Shown here in pieces: positions 450 to 64,000 of a stretch of 64,000 nt of DNA. The position numbers were made by a program, and so were the translations under genes. The stretch is taken from NCBI GenBank assembly GCA_964016885.1, contig OZ024749.1, positions 25,048,001 to 25,112,000 of the forward strand. The letters are read 5' to 3'. Numbering within the stretch: the stretch's first letter is position 1; each line of letters opens with the position of its first letter. The notes beneath the pieces were generated by a model. It was not told where the DNA came from, did not search any database, and worked only from the letters and a program-made list of their open reading frames with translations. The stretch comes from Eledone cirrhosa. Taxonomy: Eukaryota.

Positions 450-485
<36 letters not shown>

Positions 486-703
486 TATAGATAGATTTCT
501 TTATTTACCATAAAGGCATAAAAAAAAGGGACAAATATAAAGGAGGAGTTTACATACAATCGAGTAAAAAGGGTATAAAATGGAAATAATCGAAAATAAC
601 CTCAAAAGGGAGGGGACGTGATGGGGGTTGCACACACCCCCGAAAAAGTGTGCAATCCTTTTCCCGGGGAGCACATGGAGAAGGTGCTCCCCTCTCCTTT
701 ACT

Positions 704-3700: not shown

Positions 3701-4126
3701 CCAATCCCCCGCTAGAAGCAGGGAACGCGACGTTCCCAGAAAAGTCTCCAAAAGCTGGAAGAAGTCGGGCCGTTCAGCTCCGAAAGGGGAGTAGACGGGG
3801 ACCAGTCTCAAGGCCGCACCTTCACTACTGCCAACGTCTAGCACCAACAAACGACCCTCCGGGTCCGAGTGAACAACCTGTACGGCAAGATCTAGGTGTT
3901 TTTGAAGCAGTACGACAACCCCACCCCCACCTCCAGGTTGACAGATAGATTCATGCACCTCAAAGTCATCGAAGGTAGGGGCCAGCTGCCGCCCGACACT
4001 GATCCGAGTCTCACAGATAACCATTACATTTATACCACATGACCTGAGGTCATTTAGAAGCTTTGCTTGCTTCCAAGTTGAGCCCAGGCCACGTGCATTC
4101 AAACATCCTACTCTTAACACATCCAT
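704..4126 (-). pseudogene. Frameshifted ORF2 (AP endonuclease-reverse transcriptase) of element 1
   Basis: Consecutive ORF pieces 3587-4126 (LNARG, CET, GDWN), 1950-3608 (YLDRF, DH, PGLDG, FRPITLLN, KAFDRV, RQGCPLS, AYADD), 1314-1925, 1066-1398 (CPRC) and 711-1079 are collinear with the intact ORF2 at 7685-11116. Confidence 0.93.
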
Positions 4127-4159
4127 GTGGGCGGCAGAGCCAAAGGAGAGTGTAGAGAC

Positions 4160-5936
4160 CTACCTTTCTGCTTCCTGGGGTTCGGGTCGCACGATCCATG
4201 GGGTCGGGGTGTTGGGTGAAGGGGTGTCTTGTGGTGCTGTGGGGTCGTCAGTGTGTGGTGGGGTTGGGGTGTTTGGAGTTGTGTTGGGGAGGGGAAGGGG
4301 AGGGGGAAAGCTTTTTAGTAGGACGCGGTTTATGGGTTTGACGGAGGGTGGTCCTACGTCCTCCTTAAAATCCTTTTTTAGTTTTTGGTAGAGGTTCATT
4401 GGGATCTTTATTAATTTTAAATGTGGGTTGTTTTCTGAAGAAACAAAGTTTACACCTTCGGTTTGTACCGAAGGATTATTGTTTATGAGTTCATTTAATT
4501 TATTATTGTTTCTGTTGATGTAAGTATAGTGTAATGTCTTTTTTTCGGATGGTGTGAGTGTTTCGAAGAGGGGAGGGCCAGGTTTGGTTTTGTTTGTTGC
4601 TGGAGGGGTTTTTTGTGTTTTGTTGGATTGTGTTGACATTTGGGTGGGGGTTGTTTGGCCTTGTGTGTTTTGCACATGTTTTCTTTTTTTCCTTTTAATC
4701 TGTGTGAAGGACTCCGTTTCTTCCTCCGAATTCGTTGGGTTATCTTCAATGTTGGAGGGAAGAGGTATGTTTGCTGGTAATGTTTCCGTGTTGGTTTTCT
4801 TTGTGGGGGAGATGGATGTCACTATGTTAGACTGTGTTGTGTGTTGTGGCTGCGGTGGTTGTGTTGTTTTATTGAGTGAGGGGTTGGGTGGGCCTGTATT
4901 TTGTTTTGGGTAATGTGTTGTGACTGTTTGTGTTGTGGTGTTGGTGTAGTTTTACTGAGGGACGGGTTGGGTGGGACTGAGTTGTGTTGTTTGTTTATCT
5001 GTTGTGGTGGTGGTGGTGGAGCTGGTGTTGGTAGCAGGGTTTTCTTGTTGTTGAGTTGGGGACAAGCCGCCTTCAGGTGCTTTCTGCCTGCACAGATATG
5101 ACAGGACGGTCTTCTCCCCTCCACGCTAATGTTTATATACCCGTGACCCTCTAATAGGATTCTGTCGGGTATTTGGGCGATGCGTTCAGGCTTCATTTGC
5201 ACTACAAGCTCTATACCTGTTCCACTGAACGCATTGCCTGTGGTTTTCCCAATGGAAATCACGTTGTCATTCGCTGGATCGATGAAGCCAGCTATGAGCC
5301 AGCAGTAGCCCACATCTGGCATCATTGCATCCAGCCATATGCGTTGAGTACTTTTACCCATATAAGATGGATAAAAGGTAAAATTTTTCGAACGAATCGG
5401 TGACAAATCACATTTTTTTGCCGCCGATTCGTTCTTCATAATAATCGCTAGGTTTCCATACAGTCTGTCTTTTCTTATGAAAGTGGTTTCATTAAGTACT
5501 TCTGTGAGTACTGTTTTGATTTCTGTTTGAGTTGGCTGTTCAGGTTTTTAGAAGTGTTGTTGATGGTGCGGAAAACGACCGTTCGACTTTCAATGTCTTT
5601 GGTGAGTTCTTGAGGCATTTTTACCGATAAAATACCATTCTCTCTTTCAGTTATATATTGTTTGGCGTCTGCAATTCTTTGTGCCACATCTGAAATATTT
5701 TCAGGTATATATGTCAAAGATTTCTTTGTTGTTTGTGCAAATGAAATCTTATTGGTATTGACTTTGTCGTCTGCTTTGCTTTCTGTTATGATGTTGTTTT
5801 CAAATGTTATTTTTGTGTTTGTTGTGTCTTTGTTTGTGGTATTAATATTGTAATGCAATTTTTCAAATTTTTTTTTTTTCGTTGTTGGAATCCATGTCCA
5901 GATTTGTGTTTTCGTCATTTTTCTCCGCAGATTCAT
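4160..5936 (-). pseudogene. Frameshifted ORF1 (gag-like, CCHC zinc knuckle, Pro/Thr-rich linker) of element 1
   Basis: Pieces 5475-5936, 4822-5439 (CHICAGRKHLKAAC) and 4160-4822. Shares motifs FYPSYMG, ERIAQIPDRI, VEGRRP and KPxNRVLLK with ORF1 of element 2. Confidence 0.85.
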
Positions 5937-6297
5937 CTGTTTTTATTTTATTTTTTCTTTCCTTCTCTATGACGTTAGTTGGGAAGGAAGGGGGGGGGGA
6001 CTAAAGCGTGCGAGCTTACAACTCTTACCGCTGTCCCCCCACCACTATTTTCGTTAGATTCGTTTAACATTTCTGTCAGACCATTGACATTTTTTTATGC
6101 CACAAATTTTTAAAAACAGGTTTTTCACCCCTAGGAGGGATAAAGATGAGCTGACCCACCGCCTGACAGTTCAGACGAGGGGTCAATCTACACAATAGTA
6201 TCAAAATTAAAATTGAACTTACAAAATTTCCGCAATAAATTTGAACAAAACTTCTGCGCGAAGTGAATTACATCTACGCTGTAGAACAGACGACAGC

Positions 6298-6303
6298 TAG
6301 ATT

Positions 6304-6363
<60 letters not shown>

Positions 6364-6372
6364 GATAGATAT

Positions 6373-6403
<31 letters not shown>
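6298..6403. repeat. (GATA)n microsatellite between Tx1 copies
   Basis: Direct inspection. Confidence 0.97.
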
Positions 6404-6405
6404 TG

Positions 6406-7439
6406 TTTCTTTTATTTGCCACTAGGGCATCAAAAGTGGGACAAGTACAAAGGGGGGAGTTTACACAAAAAGGCGTCCTCAATAAGGAGGAGGCAATAAC
6501 AAAATATAAAAATAAAATAAGATATAACAAAAAATAAAATGTTTAACAAAATCCTCAATAGAGAGGAGGCGCCTTGGGGGGTCGCACACACCCCCGAAAA
6601 AAGTGTGCAACCCTTCTCCCCAGGAGCACAGAGAAGGGGTGCTCCCTTGGTCTTTCATCTTCCTCACCTATAGTCTGATGTAGAGTGAAGGCCCATTCAC
6701 ACGGGCCATTCTCGCCACTTTCACCCATCTTTCATAGAAACGGCTGGGGTGCAGCACCTCTCTCTCCATCCTGATCCTTCTTCCGAAATGATATCGGAAG
6801 AAACGGACCAGTTGTTGGCCAGAGAGAAAGGTGCCTGACCTCAGTCCTTTCAGACGCGTCCACCATACAACCTCTTTCGCCATGGCTATTACGCACAGAA
6901 ACACAGCCTCTGCTTCATCTTTGAAGGGGGGAGGCGGCTTGATCATTACAATAGACTCGGTGGTCAACCGGATCGGTCCCACCCTTGACAGCAGTTGTTC
7001 GACATAGCCCCACATCGGCTACGCCCGAGCAGTGTACCAATGCGTGTGCAACGGTTTCCTCGTCGCACACGCATCTGGGACAGATCTTTTTGGCGGGGTC
7101 CCTACCCGGGCGCCCGTGTCTGTAGAGCCTTTCTCGAACGGGTAAAGCCCCTCGGTAGCACTGTCCATAGGTCCCGGGCTGAATGTCCTACCGAACAGGC
7201 TGGCCAGTTCGTCCTCCTCCATGTCTAGGGCTTCTCCGAGGGCGTCGTCGCACCTGCTGCGTACCAGCCCTCTATAGAATGTTGCGGTGGAGTCTCCACT
7301 GATAACCGGATCCGCCTGCCAGAGGGCGGTGAGCGCCTGGGCACACTCAGTGTGCCAGGCGCCCAGTTTTGTCGGTCTTTGCTTGACCCAGGATTGCAGC
7401 TCGGTGAGTGAGACGAGTCTGGGAAAGGTTCGTTTCACA
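6406..7439 (-). mobile_element. 5'-truncated Tx1/L1 copy (~1 kb: ORF2 C-terminus plus 3' UTR)
   Basis: ORFs 6668-7015 and 7019-7495 match the ORF2 C-terminus (KEVVWWTRLKGLRSG, ARVNGPSLY), with small internal deletions. Its 5' end abuts GATAGATAGATA at 7441. Confidence 0.92.
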
Positions 7440-7684
7440 AGATAGATAGATAAATTTCTATTTATTTGCCACGAGGGCACAAAAGAAGGGGACATTTACA
7501 CAGTGGGGGAGTTTACATAAATCGAGTAAAGAAAAAAGGAATAACAATAATAATATAACAATAAAAAGTCCTCAAAAGGGAGGGGGCGTGTTGGGGATTG
7601 CACATACCCCCGAAAAGTGTGCAACTCTTTTCGCGGGGGAAGCCCAGAGAGGAGGCGCTCCCCCTTTCCTCTTCACTTCTTCAC

Positions 7685-10600
7685 CTACAGAACAATGTAG
7701 AGAGAAGGCCCATTTACACGGGCCATTCTCGCTTCTTTCACCCACCTTTCATAAAACTGTCTGGGACCAAGCACTTCTCTCTCCATCCTGATTCTTCTTC
7801 CGAAGTGGTATCGGAAGAAGTAAACCAGGTGATGGCCGGAGAGAAAGTCACCCGACCTCAGACCTTTGAGGCGCGTCCACCACACAACCTCTTTCATCAT
7901 GGCTATTACGCACAGAAAGACCGCCTCTGCTTCATTTCTGAAGGGAGGAGGCGGCTTGATGTTCACCGCAGACTCGGCGGTTAATCGAATCGGCGCCACA
8001 CGCGACAGCAGTCGTTCGACGTAGCCCCACAGATCGGCAACGCCCGGGCAGTGTACCAGTGCATGCGCAACGGTTTCCTCGTCGCGCACGCATCTGGGAC
8101 AGATCTTTTTCGCGGGATCCCTGCCCGGGCGCCCGTGTCTGTAGAGCTTTTCTCGAACGGGCAGAGCCCCCCGGTAACACTGCCAGGCTAGGGACCTCTG
8201 GAAGTTGTCCATGGGTCCCGGGCCGAAAGTTCTACCGAACAGGCTGGCCAGTTCGTCCTCCTCCATGCCTAGCGACTCTCCAAGGGTGTCGTCGCCCCTG
8301 CTAGCCACCAACCCTCTATAGAATGTCGAGGTGGATTCTCCACTGACAGTCGGGTCCGCTTGCCAGATAGCCGTGAGCGCCTGGGCACACTCAGTGTGCC
8401 AGTTGCCCAGTTTTCTCGGTCTTTGCTTCACCCAGGATTGCAGTTCGGTGAGCGAGACGAGCTGTGGGAAGGCTCGCCTCACAAACGGGGCCCACACCGG
8501 CTGACCGTTGAGGAATACCTGTAGATGCCGTAGCCTCAATGCGTGCCTACGCATCAACAGCCACGGCATACCCAGCCCTCCTTTCGAAGGGTGCTGGCAG
8601 CAGATGGATCTCCTCACCATGGGAGGCCGCTTCTTCCAGAGGAACTGGAAGAGCATGCGTTCCATGATGGTGAGCTTTTCCTTGGGGCAAGGCACGACGG
8701 TCAGGCGGTAGTAGATGACGGACGCTATGTAAGCGTTCGTCACCTCCGCCCGACCTTTCAGTGATAGTTTGCACTTGGCCCACTTCTGGGTCAGCGCAAA
8801 CACCCTGCTCGTCACCTCGCCCCAATTCTTCTCCACCTGGAGGTCCGGTCCGAACCAGACCCCGAGCAGCTTCACCGGGCCCTCCGTCCACCGCCCGACG
8901 ACACCGTCTAACGGCATCGGTTTGCCCCTCCACGTTCCGAGTTGCAAACCGACTGACTTGTCCTGGTTCAGCTTAGCCCCCGTCAGCCTTTCGTATTCCT
9001 CCAGTAGGGTGGCGATCGCCCCGATTTCCGAGGCGTCCGCCACCATTACTGTTACGTCGTCGGCATAGGCCGAGACCGCTTTGTGCAATCCCGGTTCCAG
9101 GGGTATGCCCCGCAGCAACTCCAACTTCCGCAGCAGTGGCTCGAGAGTCAATACGTACAGAAGGGAGGAGAGGGGGCACCCCTGTCTGATGGATCGGGTG
9201 ATTTGAAACGGCTCCGAGAGGTAGCCGTTTACTTTAATCCTAGAGTAGATGTTGCCACTGTGCATGGCAGAAATCCAGCCCCTGAAAACGGGTCCGAAGC
9301 CCGCCGCCGCTAGCACCGCATCCAGGTAACCATGGTCGACCCTATCGAACGCCTTAGATTGATCCAAGTTGATCAGGGCCCCACCAAAGCCGGGTTCGTA
9401 GCCAACCCTCTCTATGATGTATCGCATGAGGTGGAGGTTGTCGTGAATGGACCTGGACGGGATAGCGCATGTCTGCGCGTCTCCCACCAAACCACCCACC
9501 ACAAGCGCCAACCTCTTCGCCAACACCTTGGCCAAAATCTGTAACTCTGCATTCAGCAGAGTTATGGGCCTAAAGTTACTTAAGTCGTCCCCCTTGCTCT
9601 CGTCCTTCCTCACTAGCGTGACCACGCCCTTGGTCACAGAACAGGGAATTCTCCCGTTCTGTTGCCAGTTGCAATAGACAGCCTCGAGGAGTTCGGAGAA
9701 CAAGACCGGCATAGCTAAATAAAGTTCGTATGGTAGACCATCGAGACCCGGGGATTTGCGTCTGCTGCATTGGCTGAGCGCTTCCCCGATTTCAGTGGCT
9801 GTGATTGGCCCTTCGCAGCACTCCGCTTCGCCGCTCGAAAGACGCGGTAGACCGTCGAGGTATGGACCGAAGTCCACATCCCCGTCCGGCCCCCCGCCAC
9901 CTCCGAACAGTCGAGCAAAGTGCCTTTGAAAGGTCTCGCACATTCGCTCAGGTTCAAGGATCACCCGTCCATCCTGGTCTCGCAAAGACCGAATGGTGGA
10001 TTTAATCCCACTCTTGGCTTCTGTCACGCGGGCCCAGCTAACAGCTTTGGTCCCCTCGTTTCCTAAAACACGTATTTTACTTCGGACAACGCAGCCTTCG
10101 TGCTTCGCGTCAAAGAACTGGCTCAATGCCGTTCTCGTCGCTAACACTCTGGCTACGTCTCCGCTCCTAATCGCCTCTTCTAGTTTATCTGTTAACTCCC
10201 TTTCCCTCCTATTTCTATTCGCCGCTAGTTCCTTACTGTAACCTATCGAACTTACTCTAATCTCTCTCTTTAGAGATATCCACCACCTACTGTTGACGAT
10301 CGCTCCCGTCAACCGCATCTTAACTAAGCTACTAATCCGGTTTCTGTAATCTTTCTTTGTCGGTAAGGACAAGTTCATCTTCCAGTAACCGGGACCCTGT
10401 CTATGCGTTCTATCAAGGTTGACCACGCAGGTCACTAATTTGTGATCTGAATAGCCAACCATGATCAGTTCTGGACAACTAAATACGTCCCTATCCTTAC
10501 TCCTAACCAAAAACCTATCTAGGTACGATCTAGATTGTCCACTGCGGTTTGCCCAGGTCCAGGTTGGCGCAGTTGGACAATCTAGTCGAAATCTATCGAC

Positions 10601-11116
10601 CAGGTCGAATCGATCGAGTAACCCCTTGAGGCTGCTACACCCCCCTCTATCGGGACATGCCCCTGCATAGTCCCAACGCGCATCTAGGATTCCATTCCAG
10701 TCCCCCACTAAAAGCAGGGAACGCGACGTTCCTAGAAAAGTCTCCAGACGTTGGAAGAAGTCGGCTCTCTCCGCCCCGAAGGGAGCATAAAGACCGACCA
10801 GTCTGAAAGCCCCGCCTTCACCACCTCCGACGTCCAGCACCAGTAATCGACCCCCCGGGTCCGAGTGAACAATCTGTACGTCGAGAGTCAGACGTTTATC
10901 CAGCAGTACGGCAACTCCCCCCCCCCCGCCTCCGGGTTGACAGAGAGATGCGTGCATCTCAAAGTCATCGAAGGCGGGCGCCAGCTGTCTCACGCTGCTG
11001 ATCCGACTCTCGCAAACAACCATCACATCTATACTTTGTGACCTGAGGTCACTTAGAAGCTTTGCTTGCTTCCAAGCTGAGCTCAGGCCACGCGCGTTCA
11101 AACAGCCAACTCTCAA
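7685..11116 (-). CDS. ORF2 polyprotein: AP endonuclease, reverse transcriptase, C-terminal CCHC finger (1143 aa)
   Basis: APE motifs LNARG, GDWN, YLDRF, SDH. RT motifs SPGLDG, FRPITLLN, DQSKAFDRV, RQGCPLS, AYADD, KLLGV. CPRC-x8-H-x4-C near the C-terminus. The GPGYWK linker and GGLG motif are typical of L1/Tx1. No in-frame ATG at the start. Confidence 0.96.
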   Translation of the reverse strand: MRVGCLNARGLSSAWKQAKLLSDLRSQSIDVMVVCESRISSVRQLAPAFDDFEMHASLCQPGGGGGGVAVLLDKRLTLDVQIVHSDPGGRLLVLDVGGGEGGAFRLVGLYAPFGAERADFFQRLETFLGTSRSLLLVGDWNGILDARWDYAGACPDRGGCSSLKGLLDRFDLVDRFRLDCPTAPTWTWANRSGQSRSYLDRFLVRSKDRDVFSCPELIMVGYSDHKLVTCVVNLDRTHRQGPGYWKMNLSLPTKKDYRNRISSLVKMRLTGAIVNSRWWISLKREIRVSSIGYSKELAANRNRRERELTDKLEEAIRSGDVARVLATRTALSQFFDAKHEGCVVRSKIRVLGNEGTKAVSWARVTEAKSGIKSTIRSLRDQDGRVILEPERMCETFQRHFARLFGGGGGPDGDVDFGPYLDGLPRLSSGEAECCEGPITATEIGEALSQCSRRKSPGLDGLPYELYLAMPVLFSELLEAVYCNWQQNGRIPCSVTKGVVTLVRKDESKGDDLSNFRPITLLNAELQILAKVLAKRLALVVGGLVGDAQTCAIPSRSIHDNLHLMRYIIERVGYEPGFGGALINLDQSKAFDRVDHGYLDAVLAAAGFGPVFRGWISAMHSGNIYSRIKVNGYLSEPFQITRSIRQGCPLSSLLYVLTLEPLLRKLELLRGIPLEPGLHKAVSAYADDVTVMVADASEIGAIATLLEEYERLTGAKLNQDKSVGLQLGTWRGKPMPLDGVVGRWTEGPVKLLGVWFGPDLQVEKNWGEVTSRVFALTQKWAKCKLSLKGRAEVTNAYIASVIYYRLTVVPCPKEKLTIMERMLFQFLWKKRPPMVRRSICCQHPSKGGLGMPWLLMRRHALRLRHLQVFLNGQPVWAPFVRRAFPQLVSLTELQSWVKQRPRKLGNWHTECAQALTAIWQADPTVSGESTSTFYRGLVASRGDDTLGESLGMEEDELASLFGRTFGPGPMDNFQRSLAWQCYRGALPVREKLYRHGRPGRDPAKKICPRCVRDEETVAHALVHCPGVADLWGYVERLLSRVAPIRLTAESAVNIKPPPPFRNEAEAVFLCVIAMMKEVVWWTRLKGLRSGDFLSGHHLVYFFRYHFGRRIRMEREVLGPRQFYERWVKEARMARVNGPSLYIVL

Positions 11117-11121
11117 TTGAT

Positions 11122-12985
11122 CTATTTTGGTGTTGAAAGTGAAGAAAGAAAAGCACTTACCTCTCCGGGTTGCGTAATTTCCATGGCATCAGGTGTGTTG
11201 GGTGGAGGGATGTTTTGTGGTGGTGTGGGGGTACACATGTGTGGTGGGGTTGGGGTATTTGGAGTTGTGTCAGGGAGAGGGGCGGTTATGGGGAAATCTT
11301 TCAAGAGGACGCGATTCAACGGTTTTAAACAGGGGGGGCTCACGTCCCGTCTAAATTGTTCTTTTAAGGAACGATAAAGGTCCAGAGGGACCTTTATCAT
11401 TTTTAAATGGGTGAAGTTCTCTGTTGAGATAAAGTTTGGCCCTTCGGTCTGCACCATAGGGTTATTGTTTATTAATTTAACCAGTTTTTTGTTTTCTTTA
11501 TTTATATATGTGTATTGCAACGTCTTTTTTTGTGATGCTGTCAATGTTTCGGAGAGGGGAGGCGCAGATTTATTTTTGTTTGTTGAGGGTGGGGTGTTTT
11601 TGATTGGAGTTGGTGTTTGTGTGTGGGTTATTTGTGGTGTGCTGGGTGTGTGTTTTCTTTTTTTTCTTTTAACTTGTCTGAAGGCTTCTCCTCCTTCTTC
11701 TTCAGAAGTTGGGGGAAACTCTTCAGCGCTAGGTGGGAGGGACGTGTTGTGTGGTTGTTTTTTTTTTTGCGGGAGGGGTAGATTTGTTACTGTTTTTTTT
11801 ATTATTTGTTTGGAATGGGTTTTGTGGTGGTGGTGGTGGTAATGTTTGTGTCGTGCTTGTGGTTGGTGATGGTGGTGGTGATGTTTGTGTTGTGGTTGGT
11901 GGTGGTGATTTTTGTGTCGTGCTTGTGTTTGGTGCTGGTGGTGGTGATGTTTGTGTTGTGTTTGTGGTTGGTGGTGTCTGTATTTTGTTTGCTGTGTGTG
12001 GTATTAGTGTATTTTTGGAGGTGGGTGGTGCTGGTGTACTGTTTGTGGTGGGTGTGGGCAATAGTCCTTTTTGGGGGATACGTTTCGGGCAGTTAGCCTT
12101 AACGTGTCCCCTTTCCATGCATAAATAGCATGCTGGTCTTCTCCCCTCTACAATTATGTCTATTGGGGTAAGGTCATCCAGCCAGATGCGATCCGGGATT
12201 TGTGCTATTCTTTCGGGCCTCATTTGGACTAGTATGTCGAGGCCCATTCCCAGGAACGCATCTCCAGTTGCCTTCCCCATTGACAGCATAGTGTCTTCGC
12301 CCATATCAATGAAGCCAGCAATAGCCCACCAGAAGTCCATTGTGGGCAGCATTGTTTTTACTTTTACTCTCTGTGTTCTTCTACCCATGTAGGAGGGATA
12401 GAAGCTATATGTTGTCGACGAGAGTGGGCTTAGGGAAAGCTTCTCCGCCGTTTCTTTGTCTCTTGTTAGGACCGAAATGCTGCCATAGAGTCGGTCCTTT
12501 CGTATGAAGAGAATATTCTTCATATAGTCTTTTATGACTAACTCTATTTCCATTTGGCTGGGCTGTGCTGGCTTTCTTGTCTGGTTCAGTATAGTTCTGT
12601 ATATAACTGTGTTTTCTGCTCTGGCTTTCTTGAATTCTGGGGGGGAGTTAATGGAAAACATTCCGTTCTCCCCCAAAACAATATGTTTCTTTGCTTCGGC
12701 CAGTTTTTCTCTGGCGGCAGTTAGGTCAATTGGTGTGTATGTAATGGATTGCTTTGTTTTCTGGGCGAAAGTTGCCCTGTCGTTATTTGTATTATTTTCT
12801 GTTTGTTTGTTTTCTGTTTGCTCATTTTCCTTAACATTTGTTTTTTCATTTTGTTTGTTTGTTTCAATGTCTAATTTTGTTGTAATTATTTTTTGTTCTT
12901 CAGACTTGGGGGGCGTGGCAGAGCTAATGGCAGACATGTCTGCCATCTTTTCCGCCATGCTGCCAAGAAAGAAATTTTTCGGCAA
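11122..12985 (-). CDS. ORF1 nucleic-acid-binding protein with one frameshift (11729-12985 plus the frame containing 11122-11544)
   Basis: Zinc knuckle CYLCMERGHVKANC and Pro/Thr-rich repeats. The C-terminal part is homologous to 4160-4822. The frame changes around the homopolymer runs at ~11758-11800. Confidence 0.85.
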
Positions 12986-13159
12986 AAATAGATATTTATT
13001 TTACCCCCTAAAAAGGGGGTAAATGCAAAAATGTTTCCCTAAATAACAGGGGTTAGTGTTCCAAATGTGTTGCACTAAAAAATTTATCCGGTACTTACAA
13101 TAGTAAGGGTAAATCCCGATGGAATAGCGGAGCCGATGCGAAGCGTGTCTTACTCTATC

Positions 13160-27101: not shown

Positions 27102-28200
27102 TTAGTAATTTATTTTGGATTTTAATATGTAAAAGAGTTGAAGGTTACATAACCTACAGTACTTCAATCCACTCCGATATGCACTAGCGCTGGAAAGTAT
27201 ATCCCATTTCAAGGTGAAATGTTGGTTGCGTACACGGAGTTGCCAGGTCTTGTTGGCGAGCGTGGTCACAAAACGGTGATCAGGATGTTTAATTGAGAAT
27301 CGATGGCGGTAACAGCGAGCTTTAAAAGAGGTGGTGGTAGACCCGATGTAATACCATTTCTGGTCGTTCGATTCAACCGTGCATTGGTAAACAATGTTGG
27401 ACTTTAGGCATTTATTATTTAATGGAAATCTTTCTGGTAGGTGGCAGTTACAGTTTTTGTTGTTGGTAGCGGGTATACCATGGATAGGTTGTGATAGCAG
27501 TACAGGTGGGTTGTGTAATACCTGTCTCCCATTTAGTGGTTGGGAGGCCGATATTACGTTATGCTCATCTGTTATTAAAATATTTTGTTTTGTAGTGTTG
27601 TTTAATTGCTTTAAGTTAAGTTTTTTTATGTATGCTTCAAGGTTTGGTGCCGTGGAGTATGATAGTCTAATAGTTTTAGAGGTCAGAATTTTACTGTATT
27701 TATGGGAACTAGGGAAATGGTTATTGATTAACTTAAAGCATGAAAGAGATAGTTTTGTACTAATCGAAGCATTAAAAATAGGATTATACCAGATATACTT
27801 TCTACATCGTGATTTATTTGGTGATGATTTTCTATTATTAGTATGTATGGTGGTACTGCGCTTGTATTTCAGTACCCCGGTTACATATTCCTTGATTTCG
27901 TGTAGAGCTATGTGTGTTATGGAGATTCTTATCAATGTATTCTATTGTATCCCGGTAGTCGGCATTCCTTAATGCATTATTATAGTATTCAGAGTGTTCA
28001 CTAAAAATCTCAGAGTCAGACCATAGGCGAGAGATTCTAAGAGAAATACTACGGGGAACCGATTTGATCATGGAAAGTGGGTGGTTTGAGTTAAAATTGA
28101 TATAGGTAAGGTTCTCATTTATCTTGTGAAAGGGTCGTATCAGTCCGGTATTTAAATTAAGAATTACGTCTAGAAAATTTACTACTTTAAGACTGTATTC
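27102..28200 (-). pseudogene. Penelope-like RT thumb plus GIY-YIG endonuclease, frameshifted
   Basis: IWYNP..., CNC..PL..KCL..NIVYQCTV..YYIGST..FKAR..H, and a C-terminal CRLC. Confidence 0.85.
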
Positions 28201-28256
28201 GTACGTTATTTTTAGATCCAGTTCACTAAAAGATTTTCTAATGTTTTTCCGTAGCC

Positions 28257-28321
<65 letters not shown>

Positions 28322-28709
28322 TATTATATATATAAATACACAGACACACACACATATATATATATATATCTGTAAATAGATAACTCTGCTCAATAACTAT
28401 GCCTCTATAATCCTGTATGCAACAGTCAGAAATATGTCTCCATGATTTTACCACAGAAAAGTTTGTTATGGAACATTTACTATATATATCTGCAGCAAAC
28501 AATATGTAATTTACATAGTACTCTATATGGCACTTTGTTACATACTCTGTCACCCTCCCTCTTTCTTTCTCTCTCTTTCTCCCCGATTCTCTCTCCCTCT
28601 CTCTCTTTCTCTCTTTCTCTCTTTCTCTCTTTCTCTCTTTATCTATCTCTCTCTCTCTCGCCCAGCACTTCTCTCTCTCTCTTTATATATATATATATAT
28701 ATATATATA

Positions 28710-39125: not shown

Positions 39126-39725
39126 TTAAACCTTATTTAATGTTGGTCTATATTTTTGAATGAACATATTTTCCTTATTTATTTGCATTTGTTCTGTTGT
39201 ATTGTTAGCGCAAAGGTAAAATGGGAAGACTTGGAATTTGGGTGTCTTATTACTTGCGCAAATGTCTAGATATGCACTTAGTGGTATCTGTCTCGTGGTT
39301 GGATCTCGTAATTGTTGGCGATGAACTGTCATTCTGTTTCTGAGTGTGAGTTTAGTTTGTCCTATATAGTCTTCATTGCATCCTTTACATTTAATGGCAT
39401 AAAGTAGATTTTTTGATGAGCAAGTGAAGTGATTTTTTACAGTAAAATTTTGTCCTGATTTAAATGTATACGTGTTGCCTTCAATGAGGTGAGTGAAGGT
39501 TCCACAATTAGAGCGACCACATTTTTTGATACTTGGTTGTGGGTTTGTGATAGGTAATTTGGCATTGGTGAGTAATGTTTTCAGTGATTTTGGTTGTCTT
39601 TTGCTTTTGATTATTTTGTGTGTTTCAAGGGCTTTTTTCATTCTTGGGTTTTGTTTTAGTAGTGGGATGTTATTGTCAATAGTGTTGTAAGCTTCCGCAT
39701 TTCTTGGGTTGTGTGTTGAGATGTA

Positions 39726-39728
<3 letters not shown>
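39126..39728 (-). pseudogene. Penelope-like GIY-YIG endonuclease (open frame, 5'-truncated)
   Basis: KRQPKSLK..L, CGRSNC linker, CSSKNLLYAIKCKGC..YIGQT..LRNRMTVH, and KE..FI..P.LN. Confidence 0.88.
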
Positions 39729-39777
<49 letters not shown>

Positions 39778-39889
39778 ATATATATATATATATAGTAATA
39801 ATAATAATTTTGAAGACTAAAATCCAAAGAGGGCTCTATAGGGTTATATATATATATCACATATATAAGAACCGTAGAGCAAATATTTA

Positions 39890-40035
39890 TTAAAATAACA
39901 GATTAAAGTTTAAGAAAAGAATCGCTGCTTTCACCCTTAACGGGATCTACTGAAACGGGATCCAGAGTTTCAGTAGATCCCGTTAACGGTGAAAGCACCG
40001 ATTCTTTGCTTAAACTTTAATCTGTTATTTTAATA
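39890..40035. repeat. Palindrome of the 19215-19295 element end
   Basis: ~65-bp inverted arms around 39957-39967. Confidence 0.85.
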
Positions 40036-40040
40036 AATAA

Positions 40041-40100
<60 letters not shown>

Positions 40101-40103
<3 letters not shown>

Positions 40104-40935
40104 AGACGTAAAATAAGAAAATTATAAAAGTAACTTACTTACTAAAAAATAGTAAGTAAGTGTCTTATTAGCAAACCAATTTCCACTGATTGACCTCGAT
40201 GTATATATATTTACTCCATTCCAGAAACTAATTAGTTGGAAGTGATATTTTAGTAAGTGAGTTAATTTTATAATTTACTTATTTTACGTCTCTTATATTA
40301 TCGTTCTGCAACCCCATGCATTGAACCACAACGTTATTAAGACAAAACCTATATATTTGCTAGCATTGATATGCATCTGTATGCATATATATGTTACTAG
40401 ATATGAATTTTTTATTATTATCTCCAAATTATTTGTCGAGCAATATGGGCCATGACTGCTGCTACGGTTGTAGGCAGGCCGCTGTCTTATTAGCAAACCA
40501 CTTTCCACTGATTGACCTCGATGTCACGTGTTCGATTCTTTTTGAATTTGCCACAGACGTAGAGGCAGTGATTTTCTCAATGGCTTGGAATTCAGTCCAC
40601 GCTTCGCTATTTCCTATCCACTGAATTATTTTTTAATAAGTTTCCAGTGTCCTCGCTTTGCCTGGAAACTTACATGAGAATAGACTTTACTGACGACGGA
40701 ATGCTTCTCTGTATTATTCTTCGGAAAATATATTTACTCCATTCCAGAAACTAATTAGTTGGAAGTGATATTTTAGTAAGTAAGTTAATTTCATAATTTT
40801 CTCATTTTACGTCTCTTATATTATTGTTCTGCAACCCCATGCATTGAACCACACTGATATTAAGACAAAACCTATATATTTGCTAGCATTGATATGCATC
40901 TGTATGTATATATATATGTTACTAGATATAAATTC
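40101..40935 (+). mobile_element. Hammerhead-bearing tandem repeat (period ~523 bp), diverged relative of the 41.2-kb family
   Basis: CATTCCAGAAACTAATTAGTTGGAAG at ~40217 and ~40740. Short inverted copy at 40101-40150. TA tracts on both sides. Confidence 0.75.
40685..40765 (+). ncRNA. Type-I hammerhead motif
   Basis: CTGACGA-C-GGAATG...CATTCC-A-GAAA-CTAATTAG-TT-GGAAG. Stem I is imperfect. Confidence 0.7.
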
Positions 40936-40938
40936 TTT

Positions 40939-40997
<59 letters not shown>

Positions 40998-41175: not shown

Positions 41176-41210
<35 letters not shown>

Positions 41211-41388
41211 TTAGTATATCTACTAACATATGCGTACAGATGTACGCTAATGTCAGCAATTACACAGGTTATGTCATAGTACCTAGGTGGTTCAATGCAG
41301 GAGGATGCAGAACAATAATATAAAAGACGTAAAATAAGAGAATTTTAAAAAAAATTTAAAAAAATTAACTTACTTACTAAAATTTTCA

Positions 41389-41467
41389 CTCCAACTAATT
41401 AGTTTCTGCATTAGGATAAAGACAGTTACGTAATAAACTGTTGAGAATTCATTGCGTCATCAGGGAG
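41389..41467 (-). ncRNA. Type-I hammerhead ribozyme
   Basis: rc: CTCC-CTGATGA-C-GCAATG...TGC-A-GAAA-CTAATTAG-TT-GGAG. Confidence 0.78.
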
Positions 41468-42234
41468 GTCTATTCTCAGCTAAGTCTCCAGGCAATGCGC
41501 GGACACTGGGGACCCATATAAAAACAATAATAATTCGGTAAATGGAACAGCTAGCGGGGACTGGATTCCATGTACTGAAAATCTCGCCGTCACTGGTCAA
41601 ATGGCAGATTCTAAAGAATCAATCACGTGACACTGAGGCTAGTCGGTAGGAGTGGGATGGTAAGATGACAGAAGCCTACTAACACACCAAACAAATTAGT
41701 AGTGGTTTTGGCAGGTTTGCTCGACAAATAAGTGATTTGGAGATAAATATAGAGAATTTAGTATATCTACTAACATATGCGTACCGATGTACGCTAATGT
41801 CAGCAAATACAATTTTCTTATTTTACGTCTTTTATATTATTGTTCTGCATCCTCCTGCATGGAACCACCTAGGTACTATGACATAACCTGTGTATTTGCT
41901 GACATTAGCGTACATCTGTACGCATATGTTAGTAGATATACTAAATTCTCTATATTTATCTCCAACTCACTTATTTGTCGAGCAAACCTGCCAAAACCTC
42001 TACTAATTTTTTTGGTGTGTTAGTCGGCTTCTGTCATCTTACCATCCTACTCCTACCGACTAGCCTCAGTGTCACGTAATGGATTCTTTAGAATCTGCCA
42101 TTTGACCAGTGACAGAGAGATTTTCAGTACATGGAATCCAGTCCCCGCTAGCTGTTCCATTTACCGAATTATTATTATATTTATATGAGTCCCCAGAGTC
42201 CGCGCATTGCCTGGAGACTTAGCTGAGAATAGAC

Positions 42235-42313
42235 CTCCCTGATGACGCAATGAATTCTCAACAGTTTATTACGTAACTGTCTTTATCCCATTGCAGAAAC
42301 TAATGAGTTGGAG
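42235..42313 (+). ncRNA. Type-I hammerhead ribozyme
   Basis: CTCC-CTGATGA-C-GCAATG...CATTGC-A-GAAA-CTAATGAG-TT-GGAG. Confidence 0.78.
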
Positions 42314-42777
42314 TGAAAATTTTAGTAAGTTAATTAAAAAAATTTTTTTTTTAAATTTTCTTATTTTACGTCTTTTATATTATTGTTGTGCATCCTCCTG
42401 CATTGAACCACCTAGGTACTATGACATAACCTGTGTATTTGCTGACATTAGCAGACATCTGTACGCATATGTTAGGAGATATACTAAATTCTCTATATTT
42501 ACCTCCAAATCACTTATTTGTCGAGCAAACCTGCCAAAACCACTACTATTTTTTGGGGTGTGTTAGTAGGCTTCTGTCATCTTACCATCCCACTCCTACC
42601 GACTAGCCTCAGTGTCACGTGATTGATTCTTTAGAATCTGCCATTTGACCAGTGACAGCGAGATTTTCAGTACAAGGTATCCAGTCCCCGCTAGCTGTTC
42701 CATTTACCGAATTATTATTATTTTTATATGAGTCCCCAGTGTCCGCGCATTTCCTGGAGACTTAGCTGAGAATAGAC

Positions 42778-42856
42778 CTCCCTGATGACGCAATGAATTT
42801 TCAACAGTTTATTACGTAACTGTCTTTATCCCATTGCAGAAACTAATTAGTTGGAG
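42778..42856 (+). ncRNA. Type-I hammerhead ribozyme
   Basis: CTCC-CTGATGA-C-GCAATG...CATTGC-A-GAAA-CTAATTAG-TT-GGAG. Confidence 0.82.
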
Positions 42857-42920
42857 TGAAAATTTTAGTAAGTAAGTTAATTTAAAAAATTTACTTTTTA
42901 AATTCTCTTATTTTACGTCT

Positions 42921-42986
<66 letters not shown>

Positions 42987-51340: not shown

Positions 51341-51389
<49 letters not shown>

Positions 51390-51391
<2 letters not shown>

Positions 51392-51589
51392 CGAAGGAAA
51401 TGTGGTAAGGAACCAGGTGGACCATAACGCACCAAAGTACTCAATACTTAGGGTAGTAGAGTGGGTAATAGGAACCAGTAAGAACCCGACGGCTGAGCTC
51501 AAGCCGTTTCGACGGCTAATTCTGGACTCAATTAGTCCAGAATTAGCTGTCGAAACGGCTTGAGCTCAGCCGTCAGGGTCTTACTGGTT

Positions 51590-51591
<2 letters not shown>
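51390..51591. repeat. Asymmetric inverted-repeat family C copy
   Basis: Long arm with a ~80-nt extra tail and a short inverted arm, in (TA)n. Confidence 0.85.
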
Positions 51592-51631
<40 letters not shown>

Positions 51632-52112
51632 TATATGAGTGTGTGTGCGCGCGTGCGTAATTATACATGTATGTGCATATATATACTTTTGAATATGTAT
51701 ATATATATATATGTATATATACACAGTGCAAGAGTAACCAATCTTAAAGAGAGAAATGGAGATAGGAGAGGAGAGATTGGTGAATTAGTTTGAAGCCAAA
51801 GTGTAAAGGCTTGTGCTCAATGTGCAATATGCAGTGGAAGGCAGCTAGGCGGCTGTGTTCATGCAGAGGTTAGGTGCACAGAGCTGGAAATATTCATTAG
51901 TTAAGCAAAACAAGACCACAAATTTCACAACGAAGACATTATTAAAAGATTGTCTACATATTTAGTTTGATGTAAGGAATGTAGAGTGGCCATAGTCTGC
52001 TCCACTCTGGCAGACAATTGATATACCCAGGACACCATAGTGAAATACCAACATATGGAACATTACATTTATGTAACATTCTTTCCTTATTTTAATTTAT
52101 ATTCCTTTTGAA

Positions 52113-53742: not shown

Positions 53743-53970
53743 TTTCTGAATTTGTTTAGCAAGATTCTTTATGTGAAAACGTGTGTTGAAACCGATATTG
53801 TTATACTTTGGTAGGGTCATGTTGCGAATAAGAAACACACGCACCAGTGCTTTCACTTCAATTTATTATAATAAATTCCTAAATTTATAAATTTATTAGA
53901 ATAAATTGAAGTGAAGATCTGATGCGTGTGTTTCTTATTGGCAACATGACCCTCCCAAAGTATAACAATA
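53741..53970. repeat. Palindrome made from the 3' terminus of the Penelope element at 58834-59887
   Basis: Both arms match 59760-59887. Confidence 0.85.
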
Positions 53971-54016
53971 CATATATATATATATATACACACTCATGTA
54001 TATATATATATATATA

Positions 54017-54427
54017 GAAAAGAGTATGACCCCGACGGCAGAGCTCGAGCCGTTGTGACGGGGATTTCTGGACTACGTATCCAGAATTAGCCGTCGAAAC
54101 GGTTTGAGCTGAGCCGTCGGGGTCCTACTCGTTCCTATTACCCACTCTACTACCCTAAGTATTGAGTACTTTGGTGCGTTATGGTCCACCTGGTTCCTTA
54201 CCACATTTCCTTCGTTATATATATATATAACAAAGGAATTGTGGTAAGGAACCAAATGGACCATAACGCACCAGAGTACTCAATACTTAGGGTAGTAGAT
54301 TGGGAAATAGGGAAAAGTATGACCCGGACGGCAGAGCTCAAGCCATTTCGACGGCTATTTCTGGACTACGTAGTCCAGAAATAGCCGTCGAAACGGCTCG
54401 AGCTCTGCCGTCGGGGTCATACTTTTT

Positions 54428-54430
<3 letters not shown>
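54017..54430. repeat. Two adjacent family C asymmetric palindromes (54017-54216, 54229-54430)
   Basis: Same sequence as 51390-51591, in opposite orientations, separated by (TA)n. Confidence 0.85.
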
Positions 54431-54478
<48 letters not shown>

Positions 54479-54494
54479 GTGTGCGTATATATAA

Positions 54495-54550
<56 letters not shown>

Positions 54551-55689: not shown

Positions 55690-56510
55690 TTCTTCATTCT
55701 CTTCCTCTTCTTCATACTCGCCCACTTATTCCTGACGGTAGTGATGCAGAGTCCTGTGAGAATAACCGTCTTCACTCGTCTAGCAGGATTCCCAAACCTG
55801 TCCAGCGAATATCGCGCTGGTTGATTTAGCCCGTAAAATATATCCAGCAATTCATTCCAGAGACATTCTAACCACATGCACATATTATCGGAGCTGAGAT
55901 CTCTCGATTGGGAGAAGAAGCAGCCCTAACAAGCGTGACTCCTGATCTACGTGTTCGGCATTCTGTTGATTAACGTTACTCCATAGACCCTTCGGAGGAA
56001 CCCCATTTCGGCCGCTGATGTTTGCGATTGTATTATGTCGGTTATTAACCATAATTCACGATCATAGGCACACATATCGAGTAAAAGGGAGTTTTGCTTT
56101 TTCACTTACCTCCTTTCTTCTGATTACCCAATGGTGAAAATTACTGCACATAACTGCACCAGATCGAGTAATTCTTGCACTTAATTCAGCCTCCTGCCTA
56201 CCATCAATCCTGAAAACGGCCCCAAGATACTTGAAATCTCCAACCTGTTTCAGAAGAACTCCATTCACAAATAATTTGCACTTAGTAGGCTTGCTTCAGA
56301 GGACGAATGCATCAGTTTTCGCAGCACTGATTTTCTTTGCAATCATGCAGCACTCGGCATCAAATCTATCAAGTACAAGTCGGAGATCACCTACTGTCCA
56401 GTTAAGTAACACCATGCCGTCTGCATATTCTAGCCGACTGATTTTACACACGCCAATGGTGATATCACTTCCAGCCCGGCTGCGCATGTCAATCCTTTTC
56501 GTGAAAATAA
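55690..56510 (-). pseudogene. RTE-clade LINE 3' fragment
   Basis: rc: LEYADG.VLL, KISAAKT, QVGDFKYLG, AAEMGFLRRVYGVT, ending in a (GAA)n tail. Confidence 0.82.
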
Positions 56511-56550
56511 TTATTTCTACTTTAGACTCAATGCCTATAAATAGCTCAGT

Positions 56551-57108
56551 ACATTACTGATACTTTATTATATCTCCCCCGTAAGGATGAACAGCACAGT
56601 TAACCTCGGCGGGATTTGAACTCGTACCGTAAAGAGGCGTAATACTATGCTAAAGCATTATGTCCGACCCTCTACCGATAATGCCAATGCACCGCCCTAA
56701 ATAAGTGTTTCTACGTTTGGCACAAAGCCAGCAATAATCTCAGTGTGTGACTGGTACTTTATTTTATCGCTCCAGTAAGGATGATTATCACAAAACCTCG
56801 GCGGGATTTGAACTCAGGCCATAAAGAGCCATAACTCTTGTGCTGCAAAGCATGGCGTCTGACCCTCTACCGATACTGCCAATACACCGTCCTCTACCGA
56901 TAATGCCAATACACTGCCCTAAATAAGTGTTTCAACTTTTGGCACAAGGCCAGCAATTATTCCAGTGCATTACTGGTACTTTATTTTATCGACCCCATAA
57001 GGATGAAAGGCAAAGTTAACCTCGACGGGATTTGAACTCACACCGTAAAGGGCCGTAACTCTTTACTGCAAAGCATGGCGTCCGACCCTCTATAGATACT
57101 GCCAATCC
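56551..57108 (-). mobile_element. Three head-to-tail SINE family A copies
   Basis: rc of family A three times, joined by CCCTAAATAAGTGTTTC. Confidence 0.85.
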
Positions 57109-57483
57109 AGTAGTAGTGATACTAGCATTCATGGCGGAATCCTACTCCCACGTTTCATATTTCGATAACAATATATTTAGATAACAAGTCAACAGAAAAT
57201 AGTCAAAAGATAAAAAAAAACAAAAAACCGTAAAGAAAATAGATTGACAATTTAAATACACAGCATTATATTTAATAATTGTGTTTTTTTTTAAATTGAA
57301 ATTCTGCTTTCATGTTGCTTTTTTATCTCTTGATTATTTCTGCGGTCTTTTTTTCCATTTTTAATCTTTTAGACCTGTCTATAATTATCAATCAAATATT
57401 ATTGTAATTATCTTCTCATTACTCATCATTTAACTGTTCATCATCCGCTATATGGAGCGCTATATATATATATAAATACATAT

Positions 57484-58833: not shown

Positions 58834-59887
58834 ATTGTTATACTTTGGGAGGGTCATGTTGCCAATAACAAACACACGCACCAGTTGTTTCACTTCAATT
58901 TATTATATATTTATAAATTTATAAATTTACAAATCTACAAACTTATAAAGAAGGGCTCTAAATAAACATAAACTCAATATTAAGATAGTAGAAAGACCAG
59001 GTACCTCCGTAAAAAACACTTATTACAAGACATACCCGTTCCAAAGACCCTCATGTATAGATAAGAAATGTATAACCTGTAAATTAAGCCCCCATATTAA
59101 CTGTAAAACTAGAAATGTAGTCTATAGCATAAGATGTACTGAAGGACAATGTAGAAACAAAAATATAGTGTACATAGGTGAGACAGCTCGTAGTATAGGG
59201 GAACGAATAAATGAACACTGGCGAGACCTTCATGTGCTCTACCAACATGCTAAGATAGAACACAGGGGTAGATTAGAGAACATAGAAATAAAAATAGAAT
59301 CCTCACACAGAAAAGATGCAATGTTTAGGCAAATTACAGAGGCAGTAAGCATAAAAGAATTACAACCAAAATTAAATAGAAAATATGAGTGGAACAGCAA
59401 CATCACAACTTACAATTAAGGACAAAATGAAAACACACACACACATAGAACAAACAACCAACCAACAATAAATAAATAAATAAACAAATAGATAAATGAA
59501 CACAAACACACACAGACACCCGGATGTGGCGCATGCGCAAACTGAGCACACATCACACACACAGAAACAAAATGGCGTAGGATAGAATAAAGGAAAGGCA
59601 CAGAAACAAAGAAAGGAATCCCCAGTCACTGAAGAGGTCACAGAGTGTGTGACGAAAGGACTATGACTATATATAAACAACTATCTGGTTGTGGAACCAA
59701 CCAACCAACCAGAAATTTATAAGTTTGTAGATTGGTAAATTTATAAATTTATAAATATATAATAAATTGAAGTGAAAGCAATGGTGCGTGTGTTTCTTAT
59801 TGGCAACATGACCCTCCCAAAGTATAACAATATCGGTTTCAACACACGATTTCAGATAAAGAATCTTGCTAAACAAATTCAGAAACG
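58834..59887 (+). mobile_element. Penelope-like element with inverted 5' pLTR, GIY-YIG fragment and 3' pLTR
   Basis: CKTRNVVYSIRC..C..VYIGETARSIGERINEH..RQITEAVSI..LNRKYEW. 58834-58950 is the rc of 59713-59830. Confidence 0.88.
59624..59668 (+). ncRNA. Minimal type-I hammerhead ribozyme
   Basis: AGTCA-CTGAAGA-G-GTCACA(GAGTG)TGTGAC-GAAA-GGAC-TA-TGACT. Confidence 0.78.
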
Positions 59888-61770: not shown

Positions 61771-61975
61771 GTAAGCTATCGCCGTATTTTGACTAAAGAA
61801 ATTATTTAGCCAGATAAGTGGCGTTAAGAACCCTTGGAGAAATGGAAAAAGATGAGTATTGACGTGCATGTACGTCAATACTCATCTTTTTCCATTTCTA
61901 CGAGGGTTCTTAATCCCACTATCAGGCTAAATAATTTCTTTAATTTCTTTAGTCAAAATACGGCGATAGCTTACA
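61770..61975. repeat. ~200-bp palindrome
   Basis: TGTAAGCTATCGCCGTATTTTGACTAAAG ... CTTTAGTCAAAATACGGCGATAGCTTACA, centred at ~61868. Confidence 0.88.
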
Positions 61976-62363
61976 TTTATAATAATTTCAAACCAGCCTG
62001 CTGTTTCGAAAATATTCTTACTTCATATATATATATATATATATGGAAAATGATTAACCCCGACGGCAGAGCTCAAGCCGTTTCAACGACTATTACCCAC
62101 TCTACTACCCTAAGTATTGAGTACACTGGTTCGATATGGTCCATCTACTCCTTCATTAAGTTTATTGGTTGGTAACGCGCGTTTCGCTACAGATCAGCTC
62201 GATTCTGTAATCAATGTCTCGTCGGAACTCTGTGGTAGTAAAGAAAGAGTGAGCATTCGTACTTGTTTTATTATACACACTAACTCTATACCTCGATGCC
62301 GACGTGAACCTAATCATCGAGTGCTCACCCGGGTGAAGCTCCAGTAACTCCGCGTTACAATCC

Positions 62364-62393
<30 letters not shown>

Positions 62394-62394
<1 letters not shown>

Positions 62395-62578
62395 ACGAAG
62401 GAAATGTGGTAAGGAACCAGGTGGACCATAACGCACCAAAGTACTCAACACTTAGGGTAGTAGAGTGGGTAATAGGAACCAGTAAGACCCCGACGGCTGA
62501 GCTCAAGCCGTTTCGACGGCTAATTCTGGACTGAATTAGCCGTCGAAACGGTTTGAACTCAGCCGTCGGGGTCTTACT

Positions 62579-62580
<2 letters not shown>
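62394..62580. repeat. Asymmetric inverted-repeat family C copy
   Basis: Same as 51390-51591. Confidence 0.85.
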
Positions 62581-62612
<32 letters not shown>

Positions 62613-62795
62613 TAATTTAATATATCTACTAACATAAGCGCACAGATGTACGCTAATGGCAGCAAATACACAGGTTATGTCATAGTACCTAGGTGGTTCA
62701 ATGCAGGAGGATGCAGAACAATAATATAAAAGACGTAAAATAAGAACTTTTTTTAAAAAAATGTTAAAGAATTAACTCACTTACTTAAATTTTCA

Positions 62796-62875
62796 CTCCA
62801 ACTAATTAGTTTCTGCAATGGGATAAAGACAGTTACGTAATGAACCGTTGAGAATTTCATTGCGTCATCAGGGAG
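62796..62875 (-). ncRNA. Type-I hammerhead ribozyme
   Basis: rc of the 42778 motif. Confidence 0.8.
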
Positions 62876-63421
62876 GTCTATTCTCAGCCAAGTCTCCAGG
62901 CAATGCGCGGAAACTGGGGACTCATATAAAAATAATAATAATTCGGTAAATGGAACAGCTATCGAGGACTGGATTCCAGGCACTGAAAATGTTCACTGCC
63001 ACTGGTCAAATGGCCGATTCTAAAGAATCAATCACGTGACACAGAGGCTAGTCAGTAGGAATGGGATGGTAAGATGGTTTGCTGGCATTAGCGTACATCT
63101 GTGCGCTTATGTTAGTAGATATATTAAATTATCTATATTTATCTCCATATCACTGATTTGTCGAGCAAACCTGCCAAAACCACTACTAAATTGTTTTGGG
63201 GGGTGTTAGTAGGCGTCTGTCATCTTACCACCCCATTCCTACTGACTAGCCTCTGTGTCACGTGATTGATTCTTTAGAATCGGCCATTTGACCAGTGGCA
63301 GTGAGAATTGTCAGTGCCTGGAATCCAGTCCTCGATAGCTGTTCCATTTACCGAATTATTATTATTTTTATATGAGACCCCAGTGTCCGCGCATTGCACG
63401 GAGACCTGGCTGAGAATAGAC

Positions 63422-63501
63422 CTCCCTGATGACGCAATGAAATTCTCAACAGTTCATTACGTAACTGTCTTTATCTCATTGCAGAAACTAATTAGTTGGA
63501 G
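63422..63501 (+). ncRNA. Type-I hammerhead ribozyme
   Basis: CTCC-CTGATGA-C-GCAATG...CATTGC-A-GAAA-CTAATTAG-TT-GGAG. Confidence 0.82.
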
Positions 63502-64000
63502 TGAAAATTTAAGTAAGTTAATTCTTTAAAATTTTTTTTAAAAATTTTCTTATTTTACGTCTTTTATATTATTGTTCTGCATCCTCCTGCATTGAACCAC
63601 CTAGGTACTATGATATAACCTGTGTATTTGCTGGAATTAGCGTACATCTGTGCGCTTATGTTAGTAGATATATTAAATGATCTATATTTATCTCCAAATC
63701 ACTGATTTGTCGAGCAAACCTGCCAAAACCACTACTAAATTTTTTTGGGGGGTGTTAGTAGGCGTCTGTCATCTTACCATCCCATTCCTACTAACTAGCC
63801 TCTGTGTCACGTGATTGATTCTTTAGAATCGGCCATTTGACCAGTGGCAGTGAGAATTTTCAGTGCCTGGAATCCAGTCCTCGATAGCTGTTCCATTTAC
63901 CGAATTATTATTATTTTTATATGAGTCCCCAGTGTCCGCGCATTGCCTGGAGACTTGGCTGAGAATAGACCTCCCTGATGACGCAATGAAATTCTCAACA

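Follow-up and report, generated by a model that had tools for sequence, protein, structure and literature searches.

Metazoan non-LTR retrozymes have been described as ORF-less tandem repeats of low GC content with a type I hammerhead in each unit, present as dimers up to large arrays in genomes that also hold Penelope-like elements (PLEs); RNA circles, tandem cDNA and mobilisation by Penelope machinery were proposed for them in 2020 (Cervera and de la Pena, PMC7229834). A Penelope origin has also been argued from homology (Li, Clavereau and Pollet 2026, bioRxiv 10.64898/2026.07.22.740005). The 549-bp repeat analyzed here is alike in all the genomic features listed above and is almost certainly a non-LTR retrozyme, although it showed no significant similarity to the three PLE families with which we compared it. 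Its unit is longer than the 150 to 450 bp given in PMC7229834 and lies inside the range of 51 to 972 given in bioRxiv 10.64898/2026.07.22.740005, and the two-arm footprint reported below is absent from the descriptions in the 2020 main text and the 2026 preprint.

Endonuclease-positive PLEs are the second close relative. Their published footprint, set in (TA)n targets, is an inverted, 5'-truncated copy placed head to head, and only one end bears a tail (Craig et al. 2021, bioRxiv 10.1101/2021.04.23.441226); partial tandems are likewise described. This tail corresponds to the interval that separates two internal start sites of reverse transcription downstream of the hammerhead, and the enzyme acts on both strands, cutting and extending each (Frangieh et al. 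2024, PMC11167929); the hammerheads are described with a palindromic helix III and one additional base following core position 9 (Cervera and de la Pena 2014, PMC4209133; see also Arkhipova et al. 2013, PMC3846280). The 549-bp family is alike in these structural traits, its two start sites being putative, but differs in lacking an ORF, in its tail of 116 nt rather than 30 to 40, and in a hammerhead with a long two-part stem II and an extra A before GAAA. L1 twin priming also yields an inverted 5' part and a direct 3' part from two target-primed cDNAs; in the 549-bp family, unlike L1, both putative priming sites are fixed and internal, the inverted form is the majority (52/89), poly(A) is absent, and the second priming site does not halt the first arm. 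Plant LTR retrozymes carry type III hammerheads in their LTRs and a 4-bp target-site duplication, in contrast to the type I topology, tandem units and (TA)n flanks of the repeat studied here.

The element class and the general model are already in print; what we add is evidence for the mechanism proposed there rather than an element of a new kind. We found no account of two-armed retrozyme insertions or of the 549-bp family in the main texts of the literature searched, and the portion of the octopus repeat annotation considered here (PMC13282606) does not mention ribozymes.

Layout of the locus and its predicted hammerhead

The window, by which we mean the whole 64,000-nt stretch of the Eledone cirrhosa genome that was analyzed (G000:C9:25048001-25112000), contains all but the last 119 bases of a 1.51-kb insertion that runs from 62610 to 64119. 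It consists of 2.75 copies of the 549-bp unit, in two arms that face outward and are embedded in (TA)n (Table 1). The direct arm measures ~1,040 bp and the inverted arm ~467 bp, the three long copies are 95 to 96% identical, and both arms terminate in (TA)n; the target is a TA microsatellite, within which a target-site duplication is unreadable. GC content over 62001-64000 is 0.39, and the whole unit folds better than shuffled sequence (z -4.95). Tandem Repeats Finder, run with a period limit of 500, did not list the unit, and the head-to-head junction was spanned by no piece from four contig runs of unspecified kind.

The initial annotation had taken this locus for a second, independently built copy of a 545-bp repeat found near 41 kb. 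Independent insertion is supported, though not by the evidence cited for it. The two loci are ~90% identical and have different inversion points (63076/63078 here, ~41811 there); the period is 549 bp here and 543 bp at 41 kb. Followed past the window end, the array stops at 64119 in (TA)n; it does not run into a PLE ORF, as it would have had to do to count against the annotation. No ORF was found in or adjoining the array, including the sequence past 64119, and no frame with reverse transcriptase (RT) and GIY-YIG domains, the mark of an autonomous PLE, is contiguous with the repeat; the closest PLE fragments lie ~6.4 kb downstream of the array on the opposite strand.

Table 1. Features of the insertion, its hammerhead and related elements, in window coordinates
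Feature	Position	Strand	Basis
Fragment of a further abundant PLE family	27102-28323	-	
PLE 3' fragment of a young, abundant family (full copies L162-L169)	39126-39727	-	
Independent insertion of sister family S3, 523-bp unit, ~70% identical, A/B layout likewise	40096-40945	.	
Independent insertion of sister subfamily S2, 543-bp period, A/B two-arm layout like that at 62610	41194-42927	.	
Fragment of a third abundant PLE family	58949-59419	+	
Left (TA)n target tract, also flank of another small inverted element	62581-62610	.	sequence
Inverted arm, ~467 bp, unit positions 112 to 549, then 1 to 27; outer end is fixed end A	62610-63076	-	
Predicted hammerhead in inverted arm, core intact	62794-62877	-	
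Single G at head-to-head junction, matching neither arm	63077	.	
Direct arm, 1.9 units from unit position 518 on; runs to 64119 (fixed end B), then (TA)n to 64176	63078-64000	+	
Predicted type I hammerhead of direct arm	63422-63501	+	
Stem I of this hammerhead	63422-25/63498-501	+	
Core CUGAUGA	63426-32	+	
Stem II	63434-39/63477-82	+	
GAAA	63484-87	+	
12-nt palindrome, forming stem III	63486-97	+	
Predicted cut	after 63497	+	
116-nt stretch between end B and end A, here an internal copy; analogue of the Penelope tail	63570-63685	+	
Start of second tandem hammerhead, predicted cut after 64046, palindrome with one substitution	63971-64000	+	

A type I hammerhead is predicted in two consecutive copies on the plus arm, whose predicted cut sites, 63497 and 64046, delimit a monomer of 549 nt. 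Its parts follow the order stem I, CUGAUGA, extra C, a 6-bp stem II with a further hairpin on top, extra A, GAAA and palindrome. The extra A and a GUU cut triplet count against the motif, as does an Rfam scan of the window at gathering scores, which returned no matches. Among 11 hand-picked representatives of sister subfamilies, the stems were paired in 97.2% of 143 cells, with 16 cells changed on both sides; both measures, which according to a warning of the tool relatedness among the representatives may inflate, exceeded all 500 shuffles and all slid controls, and the pair-count measures, two in number, stood out less (25 and 87 of 500 shuffles). The unit bears a type I hammerhead layout with compensatory changes across sister subfamilies, and self-cutting is predicted. 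In Xenopus, 8 of 9 predicted retrozymes failed to cleave (bioRxiv 10.64898/2026.07.22.740005).

Elsewhere in the window, 481-13000 on the minus strand holds two tandem LINE copies that are 81% identical, one of them with an intact 1,167-aa frame encoding AP-endonuclease, RT and zinc-binding domains. A SINE-like repeat of ~190 bp is present in ~10 copies of 80 to 95% identity (15873, 22058, 25759, 45494, 48809, 52241, 56505-57109 and 60403). Further short inverted or palindromic elements occupy TA tracts at 39795-40050, 51355-51725, 53968-54538, 61776-61980 and 62395-62580, and are apparently the ends of more families with a matching insertion style.

Copies, outer ends and haplotypes across the family

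The exact pattern of end plus TA has 238 matches in the genome, and since the exact A end is present in 18 of 56 independently found S1 loci, scaling gives an estimate of ~740 S1 insertions. The 18-nt stem III motif of the hammerhead has 12,847 genome matches against none for the reversed control, so that the family cannot be put down to chance, and all 30 sampled matches proved to be ORF-less relatives with the same ends.

The outer ends lie at unit position ~460 (B) or ~27 (A), 116 nt apart. Of 49 simple inversions in a first sample, all head to head, 48 combined A with B and one combined A with a truncated arm; none was A/A or B/B. When 89 loci were picked by their A end only, 52 were inverted, and their partner arm ended at B in 46 cases, at A in 1 and at another position in 2; in the remaining 3 it was cut off by the edge of the retrieved sequence. 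Family S3 follows suit, with A and B in 15 of 18 inversions, B with a shorter end in the other 3 and neither A/A nor B/B, and tail length is 116 in S1 and 117 in S3. At the junctions (n=47), the arms overlapped by 1 to 5 nt in 22 cases and by more in 9, met flush in 5 and were separated by inserted bases in 11. The B arm often exceeds the A arm in length, also at the 62610 locus, and so does not represent a fold-back of the A arm. That an inverted insertion carries one of each of the two fixed outer ends points to Penelope-type double priming.

Exceptions to the rule of one A and one B are L213 and G000:C4:362414569, where one A/A insertion and one four-armed insertion were seen. At L236, the second arm is an inverted copy of a neighboring Penelope end. 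We rejected a chimera of retrozyme and Penelope arms there, as this arm has variants in common with the adjacent older copy and hence reads as an inverted copy of the flank, which suggests that a TA tract can fold back while integration is under way.

One template per locus had been argued in the initial annotation from variants thought to be locus-specific. The cited motifs do occur in all three long copies here and are replaced by other alleles at 41 kb, but they are majority S1 alleles as opposed to S2 (carriers 93/106, 101/114 and 113/114 at the three sites), and no private or non-consensus variant is common to the three units. Nor do the units cluster by locus here as predicted: they differ from one another by 2.7 to 2.9% and from their nearest neighbors elsewhere by 1.0 to 1.7%, they are not monophyletic, and the smallest clade of the tree that holds all three takes in 142 of the 186 tips. 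Family-wide, clustering holds for 17 of 44 multi-unit insertions (186 units), which are monophyletic, and fails for the rest; the nearest neighbor of a unit was at its own locus in 24 cases, tied in 15 and at another locus in 67 (106 units).

The claim of a single template is borne out for the family by a different route, the concordance of haplotypes. At 10 sites polymorphic in S1, the arms of one insertion were discordant in 3 of 393 comparisons, compared with 30.4% between insertions, and none of 2,000 permutations gave a value as low; in the second sample, picked by the A end only, discordance was 1/208 across arms and 10,970/43,119 between insertions. Over 21 sites and both samples, it was 21/1,284 across arms, 29/1,584 within arms and 131,138/420,693 (31%) between insertions, the 62610 locus itself showing 2/55. 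These counts leave out near-identical neighboring duplicates (C3:232772806 and C2:332030163), a locus sampled twice (L191), the C12 array described below, pieces of fewer than 20 columns and 159 of the 549 columns as low complexity. There were 41 haplotypes among 96 fully typed insertions, and that of the 62610 locus was common to 13 of 101 typed insertions (itself and 12 others); no parent-daughter pair was found among 141 S1 insertions. Each insertion thus carries one haplotype, and the near-complete concordance indicates that both of its arms derive from a single template type, of which there are at least 41.

A 72-kb head-to-tail array of ~130 copies of the 549-bp unit lies at G000:C12:24461532-24533178 (L092-L097, L170, L273). 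It has its own variants and higher-order repeats, terminates at neither A nor B, and is a retrozyme turned macrosatellite. Of its 35 common variants, 22 are missing from the dispersed copies and 12 are found in no more than 3 of them, while the last is also a common polymorphism of the family; with these variants largely missing and its units heterogeneous, we rejected the array as source of the dispersed copies.

The putative RNA template and partner enzyme

The predicted cut is crossed by 57 of 89 A arms and 37 of 46 B arms, and indels at the cut are not in excess (4/2,946 vs 37/21,010), which argues for an unbroken template at that site. These indel counts lend no support to end-to-end jumping on a cut linear monomer if its joints are sloppy, and they do not bear on precise jumping. 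A linear read of an aged multimer should place single-unit variants in one lap per arm, whereas a monomer read repeatedly should place them in all laps. In 41 informative insertions, 11 rare variants (in 10 insertions) occurred in all laps and both arms, against 1 partial case; this favors a monomer read repeatedly, most simply a circle. The rolling-circle copying that the initial annotation had expected is therefore favored, though not proven, and from the pattern of variants we lean toward a circular monomer RNA as the template.

Penelope-type double priming might instead have acted on a linear multimer, uncut or cut only in part, from a tandem locus that was young or had been homogenized locally, with no circle involved, which we consider unlikely but deserving of attention. 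The inner ends of A arms are concentrated in the 60 nt 3' of the predicted cut (30 vs 9, p=0.001) in both laps, where the stop hazard in the first lap is ~4.5 to 7 per kb, compared with 0.4 to 1.3 just past that stretch. Such a cluster is what a cut linear RNA would give, but the stretch is A/U-rich and the B arms have no such edge. Most arms make fewer than two laps (A arms exceed 1,130 nt in 5 of 89), the substrate of the anole Penelope enzyme in vitro was uncleaved RNA (PMC11167929), multimeric RNAs exist in axolotl (PMC7229834), and a young or homogenized source would yield uniform laps just as a circle would. Since units within a locus are ~1.5% apart, however, lap-specific variants would be expected in both arms when a multimer from an aged source is copied, and these are represented by the single partial case; moreover, the C12 array, whose variants the dispersed copies mostly lack, is the sole long array found. 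A later origin at the DNA level, in which one short cDNA was inserted and the tandem units and inverted arm arose through unequal crossover, fold-back repair in TA tracts or gene conversion, is very unlikely. Local duplication can be seen at C5:87934903, at L235 and in the C12 array, so that long arms are partly later products and arm length alone is no proof, and L236 carries an inverted copy of its own flank. These processes would nevertheless leave unexplained the two fixed outer ends, one of each, as well as B arms that are longer than A arms and inner ends at unrelated unit positions, and variants found in only some units stay in one arm in nearly all cases.

The three PLE families compared with the unit were each taken from fragments in the window (Table 1). 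The young family represented by L162-L169, with 18,887 first-look candidates and a 64-nt tail, has frames of 409 and 775 aa that overlap by 88 nt, the first Met of the second being at residue 162, which suggests a frameshift; it carries a minimal hammerhead-like motif with a variant core. An element with intact 775-aa ORFs, bearing RT and GIY-YIG, shows the two-end footprint in TA, with a ribozyme-like motif 79 nt before end B. The two other families have open frames of 784 aa and up to ~1,240 aa elsewhere and two alternative 3' ends in (TA)n. Pfam detected RT and GIY-YIG in the first family, nothing in the second and a weak GIY-YIG in the third. Of the inverted copies inspected, 4 in one PLE family and 2 in another end in A and B, and 1 in the third ends in A/A.

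The footprint of the retrozyme is identical to that of autonomous elements in the same genome, and three of probably many families were compared, which lends some weight to a reading that takes the loci for 5'-truncated copies of a further autonomous PLE and the unit for its terminal repeat (pLTR). We regard this as the least probable of the alternatives: the arms continue into more unit copies and never into an ORF in 72 + 89 mapped insertions, and likewise none of the 30 sampled motif matches of the wider family is contiguous with a Penelope ORF. Our preferred explanation, which we hold to be probable, is that an ORF-less hammerhead repeat entered the TA tract through Penelope-type double priming, with a single monomer RNA, probably a circle, as template. 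That Penelope machinery made the insertions is very likely, the partner enzyme being putative, and priming on both target ends is likely.

Proposed insertion route and its implications

We propose the following model. A tandem locus would be transcribed, and the hammerhead, possibly dimeric by way of its palindrome, would release the 549-nt monomer, which would then be ligated. A PLE enzyme would cleave the target on both strands and start reverse transcription from either side, each nicked TA end presumably pairing with a UAUA-like site (A or B) and being extended around the template. The two truncated cDNAs would be joined head to head, mostly over 1 to 5 nt of overlap, and some loci may later add units through local duplication.

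How animal retrozymes return to DNA, and how Penelope inverted tailed insertions arise, are both called open questions in the literature cited here. With hundreds of young insertions and many haplotypes, both become testable from sequence, through one haplotype per insertion over both arms, rare variants in every lap and the near-strict rule of one A and one B. For in vitro work, the family also supplies a defined RNA, a pair of predicted start sites and candidate enzymes that are intact. In its strongest form, about which we are evenly divided, our model makes each insertion the record of two Penelope reverse transcriptases, one per cut strand and each at its own fixed start, circling one 549-nt RNA circle. 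If true, the insertions would be direct evidence, at the genomic level, that a circular RNA of an animal is reverse transcribed in rolling-circle fashion, and the inversion plus tail of Penelope insertions would reflect obligate double priming and not self-priming on an antisense template.
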